This document shows positions 1-12,465 of a stretch of DNA of 26,181 bases, one piece after another. Below the pieces are notes generated by a model. That model saw nothing but the letters and a program-made list of their open reading frames with translations. It did no database searches and was not told the origin of the DNA. A program made the translations under genes and the position numbers. The DNA comes from a virus. Taxonomy: Duplodnaviria; Heunggongvirae; Uroviricota; Caudoviricetes. The stretch is taken from the IMG/VR virus record IMGVR_UViG_2778261575_000004; one strand, 5' to 3'. Position 1 is the stretch's first letter; every line of letters begins with the position of its first letter.

Positions 1-1077
<1,077 letters not shown>

Positions 1078-1820: not shown

Positions 1821-2471
1821 TTATCCGCTGCTTGAGTTGAAATCTGTGGGTTTACGGAGATTAGATCTTATGGTTTTTTCAGCGATACGAATAGTCGAAA
1901 ATTTATGCAGGTTCATCAGTGCTATACAAATCCCAAGTGCAAAAAAGTAGCTGGACATTCCTAATCTTTGCATATCAGTAAGTTTATTAATTTTCTCTAA
2001 AATATGTTGGGTTACTAATCCTTCGTATACAAAAGGTATGGAAGTTATAAAACCGCCAATAAAATAGAAAGTTAAGCTTATCAGCTTTATAGATTTTCTA
2101 TATATCCAAAAGCGATATCTTTTTTTTGTCCATTTAAATATTTGTTTTTCACTACTAATAGAAATTAGTTTTTGACACTTGCTATAGTTATCAATGTCAT
2201 TAACTGGATCGTTAACACCTAAAAGAATCTCTCTCTGTTCTGGAGTTAGGTTCTTATCTTTTGTTATTGCAGCAATACCATAATTATATGCAACTTTCTT
2301 GATTTTGGGATCTTCAGTATTCTTATATAGATTGTATGCAAACTCGCTAATGTTTTTGCGCGAGTTGAAAATCTTATCTTTGGGGAAAACCCAGCCGGAT
2401 CTTACCGCGAGCATCTGTATGATCGGGGTAATTATCGCGACAGAATACTTAATTATCTCGTTTATGTTCAT
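1821..2471 (-). CDS. Hypothetical membrane protein, AT-rich cargo gene between att and int
   Basis: 216-aa ORF, visibly much more AT-rich than flanking phage genes. Two strongly hydrophobic segments near the C-terminus (LISLTFYFIGGFITSIPFVY; LGMSSYFFALGICIALMNL) and one near the N-terminus. No recognisable catalytic motif. Confidence 0.55.
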   Translation of the reverse strand: MNINEIIKYSVAIITPIIQMLAVRSGWVFPKDKIFNSRKNISEFAYNLYKNTEDPKIKKVAYNYGIAAITKDKNLTPEQREILLGVNDPVNDIDNYSKCQKLISISSEKQIFKWTKKRYRFWIYRKSIKLISLTFYFIGGFITSIPFVYEGLVTQHILEKINKLTDMQRLGMSSYFFALGICIALMNLHKFSTIRIAEKTIRSNLRKPTDFNSSSG

Positions 2472-2485
2472 GATCCATTGTTTAC

Positions 2486-3502
2486 TTAAATTAAGTTATA
2501 AAGAGGGTTTTTTGTTACTGCATCCTCCAGGTGGTCTGGAGAGAAGTGTGCATAAATCATCGTCATTTTAATATCTGAGTGCCCTAAAATATCACGTAAA
2601 ACGAGTATGTTCCCACCGTTCATCATAAAATGGCTGGCAAATGTATGGCGCAGGACGTGGGTGCATTGGCCTTCCGGTAGTTCAATACCGGCCCGTTTTA
2701 CCGCCCGTTCAAAGGCTTTTCTGCATGGTGTGAATAATTTCCCTCGGTTTTTGGGTAGCTCGTTGTACAGATCCTGAGATATCGGTACGGTACGGTTTTT
2801 TTTACCCTTGGTCTTTGTATAGGTAATCCGGTATTTCGATAGTTGATGGCCCTGCAGGTTTTCAGCTTCACTCCAACGAGCACCGGTTGCTAGGCATATT
2901 TTTGCAATCATTAGCAGACTGGGGCTTTGAGAATCAGCACAGGCATCCAGCAGACGTTTAATTTCCTCCGGGGTTAGGAACGCCAGTTCACCCTCCGTAA
3001 TTTTAAATGTTGGAAGCCCGGCAAGCGGGTTGGGGGCTGACCAGTGGCCCAGCTTTTTCAGTGTACCAAAAACAGATGATAGGTTGCGCTGTTCAAGGTT
3101 TACCGTGCGGGGCTTAACGGGTGACATGAACGAGCCGTCTTCATTTTGGACCTCCCCCTTTAATCTGGCTTCCCGATATTTTGTGAAATCACCTGCTGTC
3201 AGCTCAGAGGCGATGGGATCGCCTAGACCATTACAGATAATTCTAAGTTTCGCCATCAGGCGTTTGGGGTCTGCGAGTGTTTGACCATATAGGGAATACC
3301 ACTGCTCAATCACTTCTGATAATCGCCGCCGATCTTCCTTCTCACCAAGCCATGGCTTTTTGTTTACTTCGTTCATGGTGAAGTTTTCGAATGCTATGGC
3401 TTCGCCTTTCGTGGCAAATTGCTTACGCACGCGCTTGCCATTGCGTCCATTGGGATAGCACTCACACAACCATTTTCCGTTCGGCTGTTTTCTGATGGTC
3501 AT
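2486..3502 (-). CDS. int: Tyrosine integrase, P2/186 Int family
   Basis: 338-aa ORF. N-terminal GRNGKR motif and C-terminal catalytic region (LATGARWSEA...HVLRHTFASHFMMNGGNILVLRDILGHSDIKMTMIYAH) typical of P2-type integrases. Adjacent to the att repeat and to the cI stop codon. Confidence 0.95.
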   Translation of the reverse strand: MTIRKQPNGKWLCECYPNGRNGKRVRKQFATKGEAIAFENFTMNEVNKKPWLGEKEDRRRLSEVIEQWYSLYGQTLADPKRLMAKLRIICNGLGDPIASELTAGDFTKYREARLKGEVQNEDGSFMSPVKPRTVNLEQRNLSSVFGTLKKLGHWSAPNPLAGLPTFKITEGELAFLTPEEIKRLLDACADSQSPSLLMIAKICLATGARWSEAENLQGHQLSKYRITYTKTKGKKNRTVPISQDLYNELPKNRGKLFTPCRKAFERAVKRAGIELPEGQCTHVLRHTFASHFMMNGGNILVLRDILGHSDIKMTMIYAHFSPDHLEDAVTKNPLYNLI

Positions 3503-3503
3503 A

Positions 3504-4136
3504 TCAAAGGCTCTTAATGATTTTCAGTGCACGGCCTACTACCTCAATGTCATCCAGGCCACACTCAAACGATGAATCATCCTGATGCACTACTAATCTG
3601 TTTCCCGGGAGTCGAGTCAATTTAACAATGCTTTTTATCCCGTCGATATCGACTAACCACATACCATTCACTGGTGGTGTTTGGTTGCGATCTATTAAAT
3701 AAGAATCACCAGAAGTAGTCACCAGCAGTAGGTTGCTTGAGTCTGAGGGGAGTATGCTGCTATCAATGATTGCTTTTCCAGCATCGACCAATAAACCACC
3801 GTTGAGAGTCGCCTTGTCAATTTCAGGAGATACTAGTTCAGAAAGAGGTACAACCTTGCTGGAGTTCACGGAATTGATATTTTTTTTGGGTTCAATGTTT
3901 GGACCTGGCTCCCCCTGTCCGGTGGTTAGCCACAGTAAAGAAACTCCTGTTTCCAAGGCGCACTGAATCACCCACTCTGCAGGAAAACTATCTCTTAAGT
4001 ATCTGTTTGCCATGGTGCTTTTTGATGCGCCTAAGTGATCGCAAAGTTGCTGTCTGGACTTGAAATCATAGGCTGCCATTAGTCTATGGATAGCTTCTCT
4101 TCCCCCTGTATTCTCTCCAGCCTTTACCTGTATCAT
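3504..4136 (-). CDS. cI: CI-type immunity repressor (186 CI-like, N-terminal HTH)
   Basis: 210-aa ORF immediately upstream of int on the same strand (stop at 3504, int start at 3502). Position and divergent arrangement with the apl/cII operon match the 186 lysogenic operon. Confidence 0.8.
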   Translation of the reverse strand: MIQVKAGENTGGREAIHRLMAAYDFKSRQQLCDHLGASKSTMANRYLRDSFPAEWVIQCALETGVSLLWLTTGQGEPGPNIEPKKNINSVNSSKVVPLSELVSPEIDKATLNGGLLVDAGKAIIDSSILPSDSSNLLLVTTSGDSYLIDRNQTPPVNGMWLVDIDGIKSIVKLTRLPGNRLVVHQDDSSFECGLDDIEVVGRALKIIKSL

Positions 4137-5047: not shown

Positions 5048-5344
5048 ATGCTGACGAAAGAACCATCATTTGCATCGCTGCTGGTAAAACAAAGCCCGGC
5101 AATGCACTACGGTCACGGCTGGATCATGGGTGAGGATGGTAAACGCTGGCATCCGTGCCGTTCACAAGATGAATTGCTGTCTGAATTGACCACGGGGAAA
5201 CGGAGAAAGTCAAAATGTATGCAGCGGAAAGTGAAGTGGTTTATCAGTTTCGTTACAGAGGGGAGAGTTATTCAGTACCTGAAGATGATTTGCTCTGTTG
5301 TTATCCGTCGTTGTCGGGCGATGGCAGTTACTTTTTCACGCTAA
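5048..5344 (+). CDS. Hypothetical early protein (Fil-like position); 3' end uncertain
   Basis: ORF starting at ATG 5048 after GAGGTG. Its last ~130 nt overlap, in another frame, the better-supported ORF starting at 5215, so the true C-terminus or the reading frame is uncertain. Confidence 0.35.
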   Translation: MLTKEPSFASLLVKQSPAMHYGHGWIMGEDGKRWHPCRSQDELLSELTTGKRRKSKCMQRKVKWFISFVTEGRVIQYLKMICSVVIRRCRAMAVTFSR

Positions 5345-6630: not shown

Positions 6631-7484
6631 GCACCATCCTGAAATGGGCGGGAAATAAAACCGCAATTATGTCTGAACTGAAAAAACACCTTCCTGCTGG
6701 CCCGCGACTGGTTGAACCTTTCGCGGGTTCCTGTGCTGTGATGATGGAGACGGATTATCCAAGCTATCTGGTTGCGGATATTAATCCTGATTTAATCAAC
6801 CTCTATAAAAAGGTTGCCGCTGATTGTGAATCGTTTATATCTCGCGCCAGAGTTTTATTTAAGGAAGCAAACAGGGAGGTGGCTTATTACAACATAAGGC
6901 AGGAGTTTAATTACTCAAATGAAATTACTGATTTCATGAAAGCGGTATATTTCCTGTATCTCAATCGTCACGGTTACCGTGGTTTATGTCGCTATAACAA
7001 GAGCGGGCATTTCAACATTCCCTACGGTAATTATAAAAATCCGTATTTCCCAGAAAAAGAAATTCGCGCATTTGCAGAAAAAGCCCAGCGGGCAACGTTT
7101 ATCTGCGCCAGCTTTGATGAAACGCTGGCGATGTTGAAGGCGGGGGATGTGGTGTATTGCGATCCGCCGTATGACGGCACGTTTTCCGGTTATCACACTG
7201 ACGGCTTCACTGAAGATGACCAGTATCACCTGGCATCCGTTCTTGAACATCGGTCATCAGAAGGACATCCGGTCATTGTTTCTAACAGTGACACATCCCT
7301 GATCCGTTCGCTGTATCGCAATTTTACTCACCACTACATCAAGGCAAAACGCAGCATCGGTGTGGCAGCTGGCGAGGGTAAATCAGCAACAGAAATCATT
7401 GCTGTTTCCGGGCCGCGCTGCTGGGTGGGATTTGATTATTCGCGTGGCGTGGATAGTTCTGCCGTGTACGGAGTACGTGCATGA
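6627..7484 (+). CDS. dam: DNA adenine methyltransferase (Dam-type, GATC-class N6-adenine MTase)
   Basis: Start ATG 6627 after AGGAGG. N-terminal KWAGNK and FAGSCAV motifs (AdoMet binding) and a DPPY catalytic motif (VYCDPPY). Confidence 0.9.
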
Positions 7485-9895
7485 GTCATGCCGATATGAA
7501 CAACTGCTGCGGCTTTAACGAAGCTGCCGCATCGTTCTCATGGAACAGCCCGAAAAAGGCCATTAACCCTTATCTGGACCCGGCGGAAGTTGCGCCGGTT
7601 TCTACGCTTTCAAACCTGATCACTCTGTACGCTGCCGATAACGAGCAGGAACAGCTGCGCCGTGAGGCGCTGAGTGATCAGGTCTGGGAGCGTTATTTCT
7701 TTAATGAATCCCGTGATCCTGTCCAGCGCGAAATGGAGCAGGATAAGCTCATTAGTCGGGCAAAGCTGGCGCATGAGCAGCAGCGTTTTAACCCGGACAT
7801 GGTCATTCTGGCAGACGTCAGCGCCCAGCCCTCCCATATCAGCAAGCCGCTGATGCAACGTATTGAATACTTCAGCAGCCTTGGCAGGCCAAAGGCTTAT
7901 TCCCGCTATTTGCGTGAGACGATTAAGCCATGTCTGGAACGGCTGGAGCATGTACGCGACAGTCAGCTATCCACATCTTTTCGCTTTATGGCAAGCCATG
8001 AAGGGCTGGACGGCCTGCTGATTCTGCCTGAAATGAGTCAGGATCAGGTGAAACGCCTGTCCACCCTTGTTGCTGCGCATATGAGCATGTGCCTTGATGC
8101 AGCTTGTGGCGATTTGTATGCCACCGATGACGTTAAGCCAGAAGAAATCCGCAAGACATGGGAAAAGGTGGCAGCAGAAACCCTGCGACTGGATGTCATA
8201 CCGCCTGCGTTTGAGCAACTCCGCCGGAAAAGAAACCGCCGTAAACCCGTGCCATATGAACTCATTCCGGGTTCGCTGGCGCGTATGTTGTGCGCCGATT
8301 GGTGGTACCGGAAATTATGGAAGATGCGTTGCGAATGGCGGGAAGAGCAGTTGCGTGCTGTTTGCCTGGTCAGCAAAAAAGCATCTCCCTATGTCAGCTA
8401 TGAAGCCGTGATGCATAAACGTGAGCAGCGCCGTAAGTCGCTGGAGTTTTTCCGTTCTCATGAACTGGTGAACGAAGACGGCGACACGCTGGACATGGAG
8501 GATGTGGTAAACGCCAGCAGCAGCAACCCTGCGCATCGCCGCAATGAGATGATGGCCTGTGTTAAAGGTCTGGAGCTTATCGCGGAAATGCGCGGTGACT
8601 GCGCCGTTTTCTACACCATCACCTGTCCGTCACGTTTCCATTCCACGCTAAATAACGGCAGGCCCAACCCGACCTGGACAAATACGACGGTAAGACAAAG
8701 CAGTGATTATCTGGTCGGCATGTTTGCTGCATTTCGTAAGGCGATGCACAAAGCCGGATTGCGCTGGTATGGCGTGCGGGTGGCTGAGCCGCATCATGAC
8801 GGTACAGTTCACTGGCACCTGTTGTGTTTTATGCGCAAAAAAGATCGCCGCACCATTACTGCTTTGTTGCGTAAGTTTGCCATTCGTGAAGACCGCGAGG
8901 AGCTGGGTAATAACACGGGACCACGCTTTAAGTCTGAGCTGATAAACCCGCGCAAAGGTACGCCAACAAGCTACATCGCGAAATACATCAGTAAGAACAT
9001 TGACGGGCGTGGTCTGGCTGGCGAGATCAGCAAGGAAACGGGTAAATCCCTGCGTGATAACGCTGAATACGTTAATGCCTGGGCGTCTCTGCATCGTGTT
9101 CAGCAATTCCGCTTCTTTGGCATTCCGGGGCGTCAGGCTTACCGTGAACTGCGATTGCTGGCTGGTCAGGCGGCAAGGCAACAGGGGGACAAAAAAGCAG
9201 GTGCGCCGGTACTGGATAACCCGCGCCTTGATGCAATCCTGGCTGCTGCTGATGCTGGTTGTTTTGCCACCTACATCATGAAGCAGGGCGGCGTACTGGT
9301 TCCCCGCAAATATCACCTCATCAGAACTGCTTATGAAATCAACGAAGAACCGACCGCATATGGCGATCACGGTATTCGTATTTATGGCATCTGGTCACCC
9401 ATTGCAGAGGGCAAGATCTGCACTCATGCGGTGAAGTGGAAAATGGTTCGTAAGGCCGTTGACGTTCAGGAGGCGGCAGCCGACCAGGGCGCTTGCGCCC
9501 CTTGGACTCGTGGCAATAACTGTCCCCTTGCTGAAAATTTGCACCAACAAGGGAAAGACAAATCAACTGATGGGGATACCAGAACGGATATCACCCGTAT
9601 GAATGACAAGGAGTTGCACGATTACCTGCACAGTATGAGCAAAAAAGAGCGCCGGGAACTGACAGCAAGATTACGCCTGGTGAAACCGAAACGGCGTAAA
9701 GACTACAAACAGCGAATTACAGAGTATCAGCGTCAGCAGCTTGTCTATGAACTGAAGTCCAGAGGATTTGATGGCAGCGAGAAAGAAGTCGATTTGCTCC
9801 TTCGCGGTGGCAGTATTCCATCAGGAGCAGGCCTGCGTATCTTCTATCGGAACCAGCGTCTGAAGGAAGATGATAAGTGGCGGAACCTGTATTAA
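7481..9895 (+). CDS. A: Replication initiation endonuclease, P2 gpA family (rolling-circle initiator)
   Basis: 804-aa ORF, ATGA-coupled to dam; contains the HxH metal-binding motif (TVHWHLLCF) and the conserved tyrosine-containing region ([14 protein letters not shown]) typical of gpA-type nickases. Confidence 0.9.
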
Positions 9896-9987
9896 TTACG
9901 CGGGTTAACAATTCGTGCTCTTAATAATACCAGGCATATCAGGCTGATGAACGTAAAAAAACGTTTTACATCAGTAATATTATTATA

Positions 9988-10007
9988 TACTGCAAATATA
10001 AACAGTG
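9988..10007 (+). promoter_or_regulatory. LexA box (SOS operator) upstream of the tum-like gene
   Basis: TACTGCAAATATAAACAGTG matches the CTG-N10-CAG LexA consensus (taCTGTatatatatACAGta). A second, weaker overlapping box lies at 10003-10022 (CAGTGATTATATATACAGTG). About 40 bp upstream of ATG 10048. Confidence 0.6.
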
Positions 10008-10047
10008 ATTATATATACAGTGTTGCTTTGGTGTCATAGGAGGAAAG

Positions 10048-10236
10048 ATGCAGGACTATTTTTTGGAGTCTTTGAAGCTCCAGCGCATTGATTTTTTTCT
10101 TAAGCTTGTAGCGGCTAGTGAGTGTAGTGATGAAGAGAAGGGGCTGGCCCTGCAGTGGGTTTCTGAACTGACAGATGAACTCATGGCAAAAATCAGAACC
10201 CACGAATACAACCGCTCAATGGATGTCATCAGTTGA
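10048..10236 (+). CDS. Tum-like antirepressor, N-terminal portion (possibly one gene with the next ORF)
   Basis: 62-aa ORF with RBS GGAGGAAAG directly downstream of the LexA box. Overlaps, in a different frame, the 5' extension of the following DinI-like ORF. Confidence 0.45.
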   Translation: MQDYFLESLKLQRIDFFLKLVAASECSDEEKGLALQWVSELTDELMAKIRTHEYNRSMDVIS

Positions 10237-10246
10237 GGTGGCTTTT

Positions 10247-10480
10247 ATGCGCATTGAAATAATGATCGATAAAGAGCAGAAGATTAGCCAGTCTACCCTG
10301 GACGCCCTTGAATCCGAGCTTTACCGCAATCTGCGCCCCCTGTATCCCAAAACGGTAATTCGTATCCGCAAAGGTAGCTCTAACGGTGTGGAACTGACCG
10401 GACTGCAACTGGACGAAGAAAGAAAACAAGTGATGAAAATTATGCAGAAGGTGTGGGAAGACGACAGCTGGCTGCATTAG
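10247..10480 (+). CDS. DinI-family protein (Tum C-terminal domain-like)
   Basis: 77 aa beginning MRIEIMIDKEQ...RIRKGSSNGVELTGLQLDEERKQVMKIMQKVWEDDSWLH, which resembles DinI (MRIEVTIAKT...ETWESADDWF). Confidence 0.75.
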   Translation: MRIEIMIDKEQKISQSTLDALESELYRNLRPLYPKTVIRIRKGSSNGVELTGLQLDEERKQVMKIMQKVWEDDSWLH

Positions 10481-10549
10481 AGAACGTTGCGGATGATAAA
10501 ACTAGCTTTTACCATCTGCAAGGCTGAACAACGATTGTAGCGAGGTGTT

Positions 10550-10599
10550 AGGTGGTTCAAAAGTAAAGCGGTTATTTTGCCCGTAAAAGTGAACCACCT
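10550..10599. repeat. Perfect 10-bp inverted repeat (AGGTGGTTCA ... TGAACCACCT) with 30-nt spacer between convergent genes
   Basis: Arms at 10550-10559 and 10590-10599, followed by a T-rich stretch; lies between the DinI-like gene (+) and the 246-aa hotspot gene (-). Confidence 0.4.
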
Positions 10600-10608
10600 G
10601 TATCTTGA

Positions 10609-11349
10609 TCAGTTTTCTTTGAATTTTTCACTTAATCGTTTCGTCAATACTTCGACAGATTCTTTGCGACCGGAGAACAAGTCATTGACGACGTACTCCA
10701 TAATCTCAAAAGCATCCTCAATGTCTTTGACTTTTACTTCATCGTAGGTATGGCTTCCGGCATTTCCTAAAAATTTAATTGCCATAAGAGGTCTTGAAAA
10801 CGATCCGTATAATTCAGGTAGCATCCCTAAACGGTGGTGTAGAGTTATGCGTTTGCCATTATCATTACGTTCAGCTACATCCATAGCGGTTAGCATTCTT
10901 TCAACTGAAATTCGAATTAGGTTTGCTGCTGCGCCAGGCTGTATTAGGAAAATGGAAAATGAGGCTTCAAGCGGTTCGGTAATTTCTTCTGGGCATTTTT
11001 CAGGTATTTCGAAAGGATGCAGTGATGGGTAAAAGGTGAAAGGTCTGTGCCATTGATAGTACTCAATATCATTTCTTTCTTCATCCCAACCTTGTTCCCA
11101 TCCACTCTTACCAGTACAGGCCACAACTTCACCACATTGCATTCTTGAACAGCGGGCCATGCAACTGAAAATAGATGAATCCATTTCTAGTTCAAACCAA
11201 TCTTCACTGCGGAATTTTCGGGTATCATGTGTGTCATACGAGACGAAACTTTCTTTAATGATCTGTAGGGTTTTCTGATTGCAGTTAGGGCAGGGCCACT
11301 CAACCTGCATATCGTGGAAAAACGCACCAGAGAGCTTGTGCACAGTCAT
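10609..11349 (-). CDS. Hypothetical protein: N-terminal Cys-rich zinc-ribbon-like region plus C-terminal DUF4145-like helical domain; candidate defence/exclusion gene at the P2 tin/old position
   Basis: 246-aa ORF with RBS GAGGAA, AT-rich. Cys pairs CPNC (20-23) and C63/C67/C72/C78. C-terminal LIRISVERMLTAM...AIKFLGNAGSHT...VKDIEDAFEIMEYVVNDLF resembles, from memory, the GN.a.H-containing DUF4145 domain. Sits between A/tum and cos, where P2 carries tin and old. Confidence 0.6.
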   Translation of the reverse strand: MTVHKLSGAFFHDMQVEWPCPNCNQKTLQIIKESFVSYDTHDTRKFRSEDWFELEMDSSIFSCMARCSRMQCGEVVACTGKSGWEQGWDEERNDIEYYQWHRPFTFYPSLHPFEIPEKCPEEITEPLEASFSIFLIQPGAAANLIRISVERMLTAMDVAERNDNGKRITLHHRLGMLPELYGSFSRPLMAIKFLGNAGSHTYDEVKVKDIEDAFEIMEYVVNDLFSGRKESVEVLTKRLSEKFKEN

Positions 11350-11638: not shown

Positions 11639-11910
11639 CGCGCGCCGCGGGTTGAAATAGTAAAATTCACTTAGCCTCAGGCCCGCTGATGGTTTTCTTC
11701 TGAAAGGGAGGGCGCGTTTTTGTGCAATCTTGTTTGAAGGGATTTAAATAAATGTTGAATGTGTTCCGGAGTTGGCTGTAGATTTAGTGTTCTGTCACAA
11801 GTTGCAGTGATAGGTAGCAAACCTTTAAAAGGTTCTGCTATTGTTTCATTAAAGATTTATAGTCTTTGTCCGAAAATGACATTAAAGTAGTCGCCTTTAA
11901 TGTCGTAAGC

Positions 11911-12465
11911 ATGAAGGACAGAGAATTGAACTTAGAGCAGATTGCCAGTCAAAGTATAAGTAACCTTCAGTTTCTCCTCGATACTTTGAAGATGCCGTTG
12001 GCTGTTGGTCCAATCAGTGATGAAGACTATGTGATCCTGACCACAGGATACGCTCAGCTAGAATGGGATTATGGTTTTTCTCGGTTTGGCAATCGAAGTG
12101 ATAAGTTTGAATTTTGTTTGAAGCTCCTTGCGGGGCCACTTAGGCATATCCCTTCTGGCGCAGCTATGTGCACCTTTGACGAGGACGCTGGAGTCATAGA
12201 GATCCATTTTGTGGAATCTTTTGTGAAAGATGATGACGTAGAGCACCCTCTTTACGGCAACATGTTCATGGTTACATTGTGGGCGGTATATCTTTTTGGT
12301 AGCGCGGTTGGGTGTCAAGAGATTCGGATCCCTGAAGCCCTGAATCAAAAAGTTGCTGACCACTATAAAAAATTTGGTTTTAAAGGTGATATAAGCTTGC
12401 TTTCGGCACCTTTTGCTACAATAACTGATGTAGTAAGACGCTACATTACTTCTAAGAAACAGTAG
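11911..12465 (+). CDS. Hypothetical protein, cargo between cos and Q (possible degenerate GNAT-like C-terminus)
   Basis: 184 aa from ATG 11911 (the ORF track gives 199 aa from TTG 11866). C-terminal ...ALNQKVADHYKKFGFKGD is reminiscent of the GNAT motif-B signature, but no clear motif A is seen; assignment weak. Confidence 0.5.
   Translation: MKDRELNLEQIASQSISNLQFLLDTLKMPLAVGPISDEDYVILTTGYAQLEWDYGFSRFGNRSDKFEFCLKLLAGPLRHIPSGAAMCTFDEDAGVIEIHFVESFVKDDDVEHPLYGNMFMVTLWAVYLFGSAVGCQEIRIPEALNQKVADHYKKFGFKGDISLLSAPFATITDVVRRYITSKKQ

Follow-up and report, generated by a model that had tools for sequence, protein, structure and literature searches.

A DinI-family ORF that opens a few bases after a small upstream ORF, in a different reading frame, raises the question of whether the two are fragments of a single antirepressor gene or two genes in their own right, and of whether the prophage that carries them can still be induced by the SOS response. 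We analysed this locus in a 26,181-nt stretch of DNA (the window), which represents a P2/186-like prophage of E. coli; its left flank, glaH, is 99% identical to E. coli genomes, and its prophage genes include integrase, CI repressor, CII, a Dam-like methylase and gpA, followed by late genes. The closest named phages across the module are Fels-2 and many Peduoviridae of Klebsiella, Escherichia and Salmonella. The original prediction described a near-consensus LexA box with an overlapping weaker box, a 62-aa ORF (ORF62), a 10-nt gap and a 77-aa DinI-family ORF, together forming an SOS-controlled Tum/DinI module, and offered four explanations for the split: a frameshifted tum pseudogene, a sequencing error, a translational frameshift or a genuinely two-gene arrangement. 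Both boxes, both ORFs and the gap are present exactly where they had been placed, and SOS control of the module is supported by the evidence below. The interpretation stood only in part, since just one of the four explanations, the two-gene arrangement, was right. We consider it very probable that what we have here is an intact SOS operon of two genes, repressed by LexA and belonging to a Fels-2/186-type (Peduoviridae) prophage that is integrated beside glaH in E. coli. The features on which this reading is built are as follows.

3504–4136, minus strand: 186-type CI immunity repressor, presumed target of Tum, assigned from Pfam domains
9965–9970, plus strand: candidate −35 element of the tum promoter, TTTACA, corresponding to p95 of 186 and assigned by comparison with other phages
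9986–9993, plus strand: candidate −10 region, either TATACT (9986–9991) or TACTGC (9988–9993)
9988–10007, plus strand: predicted distal LexA (SOS) box, TACTGCAAATATAAACAGTG
10003–10022, plus strand: predicted proximal LexA box, weaker, overlapping the distal box by 5 nt, CAGTGATTATATATACAGTG
10038–10044, plus strand: Shine-Dalgarno sequence AGGAGGA of tum, read from the sequence and kept in relatives
10048–10236, plus strand: tum (tumA-type), the 62-aa ORF, with ATG at 10048 and TGA at 10234–10236; predicted LexA-controlled antirepressor
10235–10241, plus strand: Shine-Dalgarno sequence GAGGTGG of the dinI-like gene, read from the sequence and overlapping the tum stop codon
Gap of 10 nt between tum and the dinI-like gene: GGTGGCTTTT
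10247–10480, plus strand: dinI-like gene (tumB-type), 77 aa, with a Pfam DinI match
10487–10599, no strand assigned: structured intergenic region with hairpins at 10487–10521 and 10549–10599, between the convergent dinI-like and DUF4145 genes

The module lies at the end of the early region. A gpA-like P2 replicase ORF of 804 aa (7481–9895) is followed directly by ORF62, and the same order is found in 186, PSP3, Fels-2 and DuoHS. At the other end of the module, the intergenic region downstream of the dinI-like gene has a predicted RNA fold of −41.6 kcal/mol (z = −4.4 relative to shuffled sequences). Neither of its hairpins is followed by a T-run, and a consensus terminator scan made no call there; this region is a possible terminator.

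We examined the operator by searching the window for LexA half-site patterns. The pattern TACTG-N10-CAGT has a single exact occurrence in the window, at 9988–10006, and 12 matches when up to one mismatch is allowed, compared with 3.9 expected. The distal box, which in close relatives reads TACTGTAAATATAAACAGTG, has four mismatches to the 20-nt LexA consensus. The composite pattern CTG-N10-CAGTG-N10-CAG, which spans both boxes, occurs once in the window (9990–10020) against an expectation of 0.02, and the composite double box is found in 84 of the 92 loci that were compared. Where the proximal box varies among relatives, the changes fall at spacer positions and not in the CAGTG or ACAG half-sites. 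From these matches we infer that LexA would bind at both boxes. A heterology index that we calculated for LexA sites departed from the values published for recA, lexA, umuDC and cea; having failed this calibration, the index was set aside, and operators are compared here by mismatch counts. Three differences set the window apart from every close relative, among them KL53, the nearest E. coli genome: the distal box has C in place of T at its position 6, the proximal box has A in place of G at its position 6, and 1 nt is deleted from the leader. These private changes could alter LexA affinity or promoter strength.

A consensus promoter scan of the window did not call a forward tum promoter, and the candidate promoter elements were therefore assigned by comparison with other phages. 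In SopEPhi, ST437phi4.1, YpM_MLG42, ev040, ESSI-2 and 186, the LexA box begins with TACTGT, and a TT(T/C)ACA hexamer precedes it by 17–18 nt. This geometry is kept despite differing spacer sequences, and it is that of the annotated p95 promoter of 186. Two hexamers are candidates for the −10 element: TATACT matches at five of six positions, with a 15-nt spacer, and TACTGC has a 17-nt spacer and occupies the position annotated as −10 in 186, where this element coincides with bases 1–6 of the LexA box. The sequence TATACTGT is kept in all ORF62-type promoters.

The second gene is clearly a member of the DinI family. The 77-aa protein matches Pfam DinI (PF06183) over all profile positions (1–63 of 63) with an E-value of 6.6e-23 and a score of 81.3 bits (cut-off 24.2), and it is 41% identical to residues 71–145 of 186 Tum (E = 3e-24). 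The original prediction had described 186 Tum as a single protein with a DinI-like C-terminus, and this is correct: Tum has 146 aa, of which the C-terminal 76 are DinI-like. Residues 1–75 of the 77-aa protein align to residues 1–77 of E. coli DinI (PDB 1GHH), Met1 to Met1, indicating that nothing is missing and that the second ORF by itself encodes a complete protein. It is identical to PSP3 TumB at 60 of 77 residues, and to the Fels-2 and DuoHS proteins at all 77. Against the NCBIfam equivalog for chromosomal DinI (NF007893) it scores 42.7 bits, below the cut-off of 111. As judged from these scores, the gene is a phage paralog and not the host dinI gene.

The relationship of ORF62 to Tum is more distant. 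Pairwise BLASTP gave no alignment of ORF62 to 186 Tum or PSP3 TumA, no family was found for it in Pfam or NCBIfam, and a PDB sequence search returned no match. An hhalign comparison between a shallow ORF62 alignment (28 sequences, >80% identical) and Tum reached a probability of only 21%. We replaced this shallow alignment with a diverse one built from an exhaustive HMMER search of cluster representatives, which recovered 88 clusters in the ORF62 family, all of them stand-alone proteins of roughly 50–100 aa, with none fused to DinI. The diverse profile matched the 186 Tum N-terminal family in hhalign with a probability of 96.7% (E = 3.2e-10) and in register, residues 2–45 aligning to residues 2–45, and an HMM made from the same alignment scored 186 Tum at 32.8 bits in hmmsearch; PSP3 TumA scored poorly against the ORF62 profile. 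Consistent with this relationship, ORF62 and residues 1–70 of 186 Tum both match PHROG 698 (E = 3.6e-38 and 5.9e-6, respectively), and ORF62 and 186 Tum both match PHROGs 8554 and 1993. The motif common to ORF62 and Tum is, roughly, E-x3-[QE]R[IV]-x-h-h-x-[RK]L-x5-C-x3-[DE][KR]-x-hA-x2-h-x-E. ORF62, 186 Tum and TumA are thus too diverged for pairwise methods, and the homology rests on deeper profiles. An AlphaFold2 model of ORF62 is a two-helix hairpin (pLDDT 89), for which Foldseek found no match in the PDB at E ≤ 0.001; so generic a fold makes this search uninformative.

We judged selection on ORF62 from divergent phage records. The 80 IMG/VR loci that we fetched all carry a 100% identical ORF62, which would make them circular for this purpose; they served instead for variation in the promoter, the junction and the DinI gene. 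When the diverged relatives are compared with the window, substitutions in the ORF62 frame pile up at third codon positions, and they do so within the stretch from 10175 to 10233 as well. Comparison of both ORFs with 186 Tum, which the original prediction had proposed as a check, finds each of them homologous to one part of that protein, ORF62 at the profile level only. By homology, ORF62 represents the N-terminal, antirepressor half of 186 Tum and the 77-aa ORF its C-terminal, DinI-like half. In most phage and genome records ORF62 is annotated as hypothetical, and some databases call it 'levan regulatory protein'.

Published genetic evidence bears directly on the function of the 62-aa gene. 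The Phollow study (2025) deleted tum from DuoHS, a P2-like prophage of E. coli HS; neither this Δtum mutant nor a lexA(Ind−) strain showed lysis or virion foci after addition of mitomycin C (PMC12055606). The primers used for the deletion, NHR24 and NHR28, fuse the ATG directly to the TGA (GGTGACTTTT ATGCGCATTG; PMC12055606). When we mapped these primers on the HS genome, they coincided exactly with the start and stop codons of the 62-aa ORF, leaving the dinI-like gene intact. The HS protein is identical to ORF62 of the window at 61 of 62 residues (T51S). Hence, a requirement for the 62-aa gene in mitomycin C induction has been shown by others, in an ortholog that differs by one residue. The Fels-2 operon also responds to a mutagen: in Salmonella carrying this prophage, treatment with MX induces STM2726-2728, and STM2727, with increases of 5.5- to 14.8-fold, is among the top genes of the LexA regulon (PMC2225428). 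Based on the homology and the published genetic evidence, the 62-aa gene can be named tum (tumA type).

The arrangement of a short ORF, a stop codon, a short gap and a DinI ORF is not particular to the window. We found it in Fels-2, PSP3, SopEPhi, ST437phi4.1, DuoHS and the Yersinia phage YpM_MLG42, the region being covered by 51 of 56 phage records, and it is present in all 80 of the IMG/VR loci and in 1125 of 5426 complete E. coli genomes (about a fifth). Existing annotations treat the two ORFs as separate genes: Fels-2 has STM2728 and a DinI family protein (STM2726.1), and PSP3 has tumA ('similar to 5' end 186 tum; UV induction of prophage') and tumB ('similar to dinI and 3' end of 186 tum'). 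Among the matches listed for E. coli genomes, 40 of 40 read 'hypothetical protein' for the first gene and 'DinI-like family protein' for the second. Two separate genes in homologous phages, named in the original prediction as an observation that would count against it, are what this comparison shows consistently. A split tum of the Fels-2/PSP3 type has already been described in the literature; Lemire et al., 2011 (PMC3121763) refer to tum as divided in two in these phages, crediting Bunny et al., 2002 together with G. E. Christie (personal communication).

The length of the gap varies among relatives, and with it the frame relation of the two genes. A gap of 10 nt, as in the window, Fels-2 and DuoHS, gives a frame offset of +1; the 11-nt gap of SopEPhi and ST437phi4.1 gives +2, and the 12-nt gap of YpM_MLG42 gives 0, with an intervening stop codon. 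A purine-rich, Shine-Dalgarno-like stretch is found at the equivalent site in relatives with each of these gaps, and in the window the overlap of this element with the tum stop codon suggests translational coupling of the second gene to the first. The original prediction had also pointed out that the DinI frame is open upstream to 10175, overlapping ORF62 in another frame. We see the same open stretch, which corresponds to a mechanically called 101-aa ORF beginning at an ATG at 10175, in the +1 frame relative to ORF62. Its extent is not conserved, being 25 codons in phages with a 10-nt gap, 14 in those with an 11-nt gap and 4 in that with a 12-nt gap. ESSI-2 and ev040 carry an ORF62 homolog behind a LexA box and have no dinI at all, indicating that tum and dinI are separable modules. 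On this comparison of sequences, the module exists in three forms: fused (186), adjacent (PSP3, Fels-2 and the window) and tum alone (ESSI-2-type phages).

The resemblance of the two ORFs to the halves of one 146-aa protein, together with the DinI frame that runs back into ORF62, could be read as the trace of a single 186-like tum gene broken by a frameshift, or by a sequencing or assembly indel, into pseudogene halves that may have lost SOS inducibility. We regard this as extremely improbable. The stop, gap and restart are kept in Fels-2, DuoHS, PSP3, SopEPhi, every IMG/VR locus and more than 1000 E. coli genomes, a distribution that contradicts a sequencing error; gaps of three different lengths all leave two genes, each with its own Shine-Dalgarno sequence; the first codon of the DinI ORF falls where DinI has its Met1; and none of the 88 clusters of the ORF62 family is joined to DinI. 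DuoHS, which has the same arrangement, is inducible. The open frame from 10175 through the DinI ORF would also allow ribosomes to make a programmed +1 frameshift towards the end of ORF62, since a shift anywhere within 10175–10233 would produce a Tum-like fusion of ~140 aa beside the two separate products, and there is precedent for several products from one gene in 186, which makes full-length Tum and N-terminally truncated DinI-like forms. Recoding of this kind is almost certainly not used here. With offsets of +1, +2 and 0 among relatives, the frame relation is not conserved, which excludes a frameshift, including a programmed one; the DinI frame reaches only 14 or 4 codons upstream in the relatives with longer gaps; substitutions within 10175–10233 follow the ORF62 frame; and, read by eye, the ORF62 frame has no slippery heptamer of the form X XXY YYZ.

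It could also be argued that ORF62 is an unrelated small protein that happens to precede a LexA-controlled phage dinI gene, with prophage induction triggered in some other way. Its absence from Pfam and NCBIfam, its usual annotation as hypothetical and the lack of a pairwise BLAST match to Tum or TumA are in keeping with this idea, which we nevertheless consider very unlikely, given the in-register profile homology to the N-terminal region of Tum and a position and LexA control that are the same as those of tum and tumA. Moreover, precise deletion of the near-identical DuoHS ortholog abolishes mitomycin C induction while dinI is intact, and ESSI-2 and ev040 keep a LexA-boxed ORF62 homolog without dinI. 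From this comparative evidence, we conclude that the split is a genuine two-gene operon and not a defect. The original prediction held that the nature of the split decides whether the prophage is still SOS-inducible. The arrangement itself gives no reason to doubt inducibility, and induction of DuoHS needs the 62-aa gene: the SOS trigger is structurally intact, and the split is no reason to call the prophage non-inducible. The private operator changes leave the induction threshold uncertain.

The need for an antirepressor is apparent from the repressor of the window. Its CI has a Phage_CI_repr domain (PF07022) and a Phage_CI_C domain (PF16452), and a Pfam search found no S24 peptidase domain in it; a CI protein without a self-cleavage domain requires an antirepressor for its inactivation. 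186 Tum binds CI and prevents it from binding its operators (Shearwin et al., 1998, as cited in PMC3121763). By analogy with 186, we take the window CI to be the probable target of Tum. It is 35% identical to the CI proteins of PSP3 and of 186-like Yersinia phages and just 44% identical to that of DuoHS, and for this reason the pairing of Tum with CI is assumed here. The 62-aa protein (Tum62) is found at 98–100% identity in phages whose CI proteins are just 38–54% identical to the window CI, and more widely an almost unchanged Tum accompanies CI proteins with 36–96% identity to it, suggesting that Tum recognises a conserved CI surface.

Taken together, the two-gene SOS operon would work as follows. 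In undamaged cells LexA, probably as two dimers, would occupy the overlapping boxes at 9988–10022, which span the −10 region and the start of transcription for the promoter located after replication gene A. DNA damage would activate RecA and thereby LexA self-cleavage, allowing the operon to be transcribed as a bicistronic mRNA from which Tum62 and the DinI-like protein would both be made, the latter from its own GAGGTGG Shine-Dalgarno sequence. Tum62, a predicted two-helix protein equivalent to PSP3 TumA, would bind the non-cleavable 186-type CI and keep it off its operators, and this loss of CI activity would lead to lytic transcription and growth. The DinI-like protein probably acts on RecA filaments, tuning the SOS signal. 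The occupancy of the boxes by LexA, the binding of Tum to CI and the role of the DinI-like protein are proposed here from what is known of 186, of colicin operators and of DinI.

The module is very common, already known and under-annotated, and its analysis adds little beyond annotation; in most phage records, and in roughly one in five complete E. coli genomes, the 62-aa gene bears the label 'hypothetical protein'. We put forward, as a tentative suggestion, that some aspects may be undescribed. These are the Fels-2-type double operator, which could tighten and delay induction; the action of Tum on a conserved CI surface, through which it could induce heteroimmune P2-like prophages in trans; and the position-6 changes in both boxes, which might shift the induction threshold.

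Among known systems, Fels-2 and DuoHS are the most similar to the window. In both, the module is sited after a gpA-like replicase, with a double LexA operator and a 10-nt gap, and the encoded pair is nearly the same as that of the window, with 61 of 62 residues identical in Tum and 77 of 77 in DinI. They differ in the gene 3' of dinI, which is a convergent DUF4145 gene in the window and a same-strand ORF in Fels-2 and DuoHS. In PSP3, too, a LexA box precedes a split tum whose antirepressor gene comes before the DinI homolog, whereas the gap between the two genes is 3 nt, and PSP3 TumA belongs to the 186-type N-domain subfamily (PHROG 1993), related to ORF62 at the profile level only. Phage 186 resembles the window in having a LexA-repressed promoter 3' of gene A and a 186-type CI. 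By contrast, 186 Tum carries both parts fused in one polypeptide, with a linker of ~25 residues, where the window has two genes; in addition, internal starts give rise to separate DinI-like products in 186. The p95 operon of 186 runs on into orf97, whereas the gene downstream of dinI in the window is unrelated to Orf97. Chromosomal DinI of E. coli belongs to the same fold family as the DinI-like protein of the window and aligns with it over its full length, and the chromosomal dinI gene is also LexA controlled.

The operator also has a counterpart outside phages of this type. Single LexA boxes are found in 186, PSP3, ESSI-2 and ev040, in contrast to the double boxes of Fels-2-type tum promoters. 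The cea operator of ColE1 (5063–5093) has the same CTG-N10-CAGTG-N10-CAG geometry as the window, with two 20-nt boxes that share 5 nt, and in the ColE1 and phage operators alike the proximal box opens with CAGTG. Of 31 positions compared with ColE1, 28 match in the Fels-2 operator and 25 in that of the window, and the proximal box of Fels-2 is the same 20-mer as in ColE1. Colicin double operators bind two LexA dimers, resulting in very tight repression (PMC2994835). The ColE1 operator controls a toxin, whereas the phage operator controls a prophage antirepressor.

The N-terminal domain of 186-type Tum, which in 186 is joined to a DinI-like C-terminal part, is also widespread as a stand-alone protein of 63–78 aa (P0164, P0179, P0186, P0206 and others). 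These stand-alone domains are 80–90% identical to residues 1–60 of 186 Tum, and carry the NCBI name "Tum protein" in Salmonella, Klebsiella, Kluyvera, Enterobacter and Edwardsiella. Since the 186-type domain also occurs on its own, both fusion and split forms exist within the 186-type subfamily. Other phage records carry homologs of the window's 62-aa Tum:

L090 (ESSI2_ev040), 1501–1713: LexA-boxed homolog of the 62-aa Tum
L091 (Cronobacter ESSI-2), 1501–1725: LexA-boxed homolog of the 62-aa Tum
L086 (Escherichia phage 500465-1), 1501–2031: tum homolog and dinI-like gene, both frameshifted in appearance

The ESSI2_ev040 and ESSI-2 homologs have a GTG start, are 70–74 aa long and are 41–49% identical to the 62-aa Tum. 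Neither has a dinI-like gene downstream, where a regulator gene on the opposite strand and the portal gene come next. In 500465-1, the tum homolog contains an internal ...ERGWLCSG... stretch that looks frameshifted, and the dinI-like gene has a premature stop after MRIE; either this copy is degraded or the record contains sequencing errors. The original prediction had suspected a frameshifted tum in the window; no such defect is present there, and it is the 500465-1 record that looks defective in this way. IS elements lie near the tum/dinI-like region of 500465-1.

The 62-aa Tum is essentially identical (98–100%) in DuoHS (the E. coli HS prophage), Cartapus, 4LV2017, ST15-OXA48phi14.1 and others, where it occurs alongside 186-type CI repressors only 38–54% identical to that of the window. 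Between the window and DuoHS CIs, the best-conserved stretch, FPAEWVIQCALETG..L.WLTTG, lies where the N-terminal domain ends. The co-occurrence of near-identical Tum with diverged CIs in these sequences hints that the 62-aa Tum may be a broad-specificity antirepressor.

The following features lie downstream of the dinI-like gene or towards the left end of the window:

10487–10599: two strong hairpins in the 128-nt spacer between the dinI-like gene and the convergent DUF4145 gene (fold z = -4.4)
10609–11349, minus strand: gene for a 246-aa DUF4145 protein, convergent with the SOS operon
11866–12465, plus strand: 199-aa ORF with a TTG start, in the variable region of the DUF4145 gene
1–978, minus strand: chromosomal glaH (csiD) of E. 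coli, adjoining the prophage
1821–2471, minus strand: 216-aa ORF between glaH and the integrase gene

Neither hairpin is followed by a T-run; the pair may be a bidirectional terminator. The DUF4145 protein matches PHROG 1305, annotated "DNA binding protein"; its match to PD-T7-4, a PADLOC defence model, is weak (E 1.6e-5). Its gene lies between dinI and the portal gene, at a position where the cargo varies among relatives: phage 500465-1 carries a TIR-domain protein there, Fels-2 and DuoHS carry same-strand ORFs, and 186 carries orf97, whose product is unrelated to the DUF4145 protein. The 199-aa ORF has no Pfam or PADLOC match and may not be a real gene. The 216-aa ORF has no Pfam, NCBIfam or PADLOC match.

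Positions of the double LexA operator:

Window, 9990–10020
ColE1 (L092), 5063–5093
Fels-2 (L001), 3110–3140

We compared the operator and leader of the window with those of Fels-2, two further loci (L085 and L093) and 80 IMG/VR loci. Private to the window are a T to C change at position 6 of distal box 1 (9993), a G to A change at position 6 of proximal box 2 (10008) and the absence of one G from the leader at about 10029–10031. Nearly all relatives are without these changes, and the coding regions are 98–100% conserved. With the box 2 substitution the minus strand gains a perfect TATAAT, part of an 11/12 promoter-like site (10037–10008) that does not exceed chance expectation in a promoter scan. 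The colicin E1 operator has the same geometry as that of the window, with CAGTG common to both boxes; 186, PSP3, ESSI-2 and ESSI2_ev040 have only a single LexA box. The Fels-2 double operator matches that of ColE1 at 28 of 31 positions, and their proximal 20-mers are identical.
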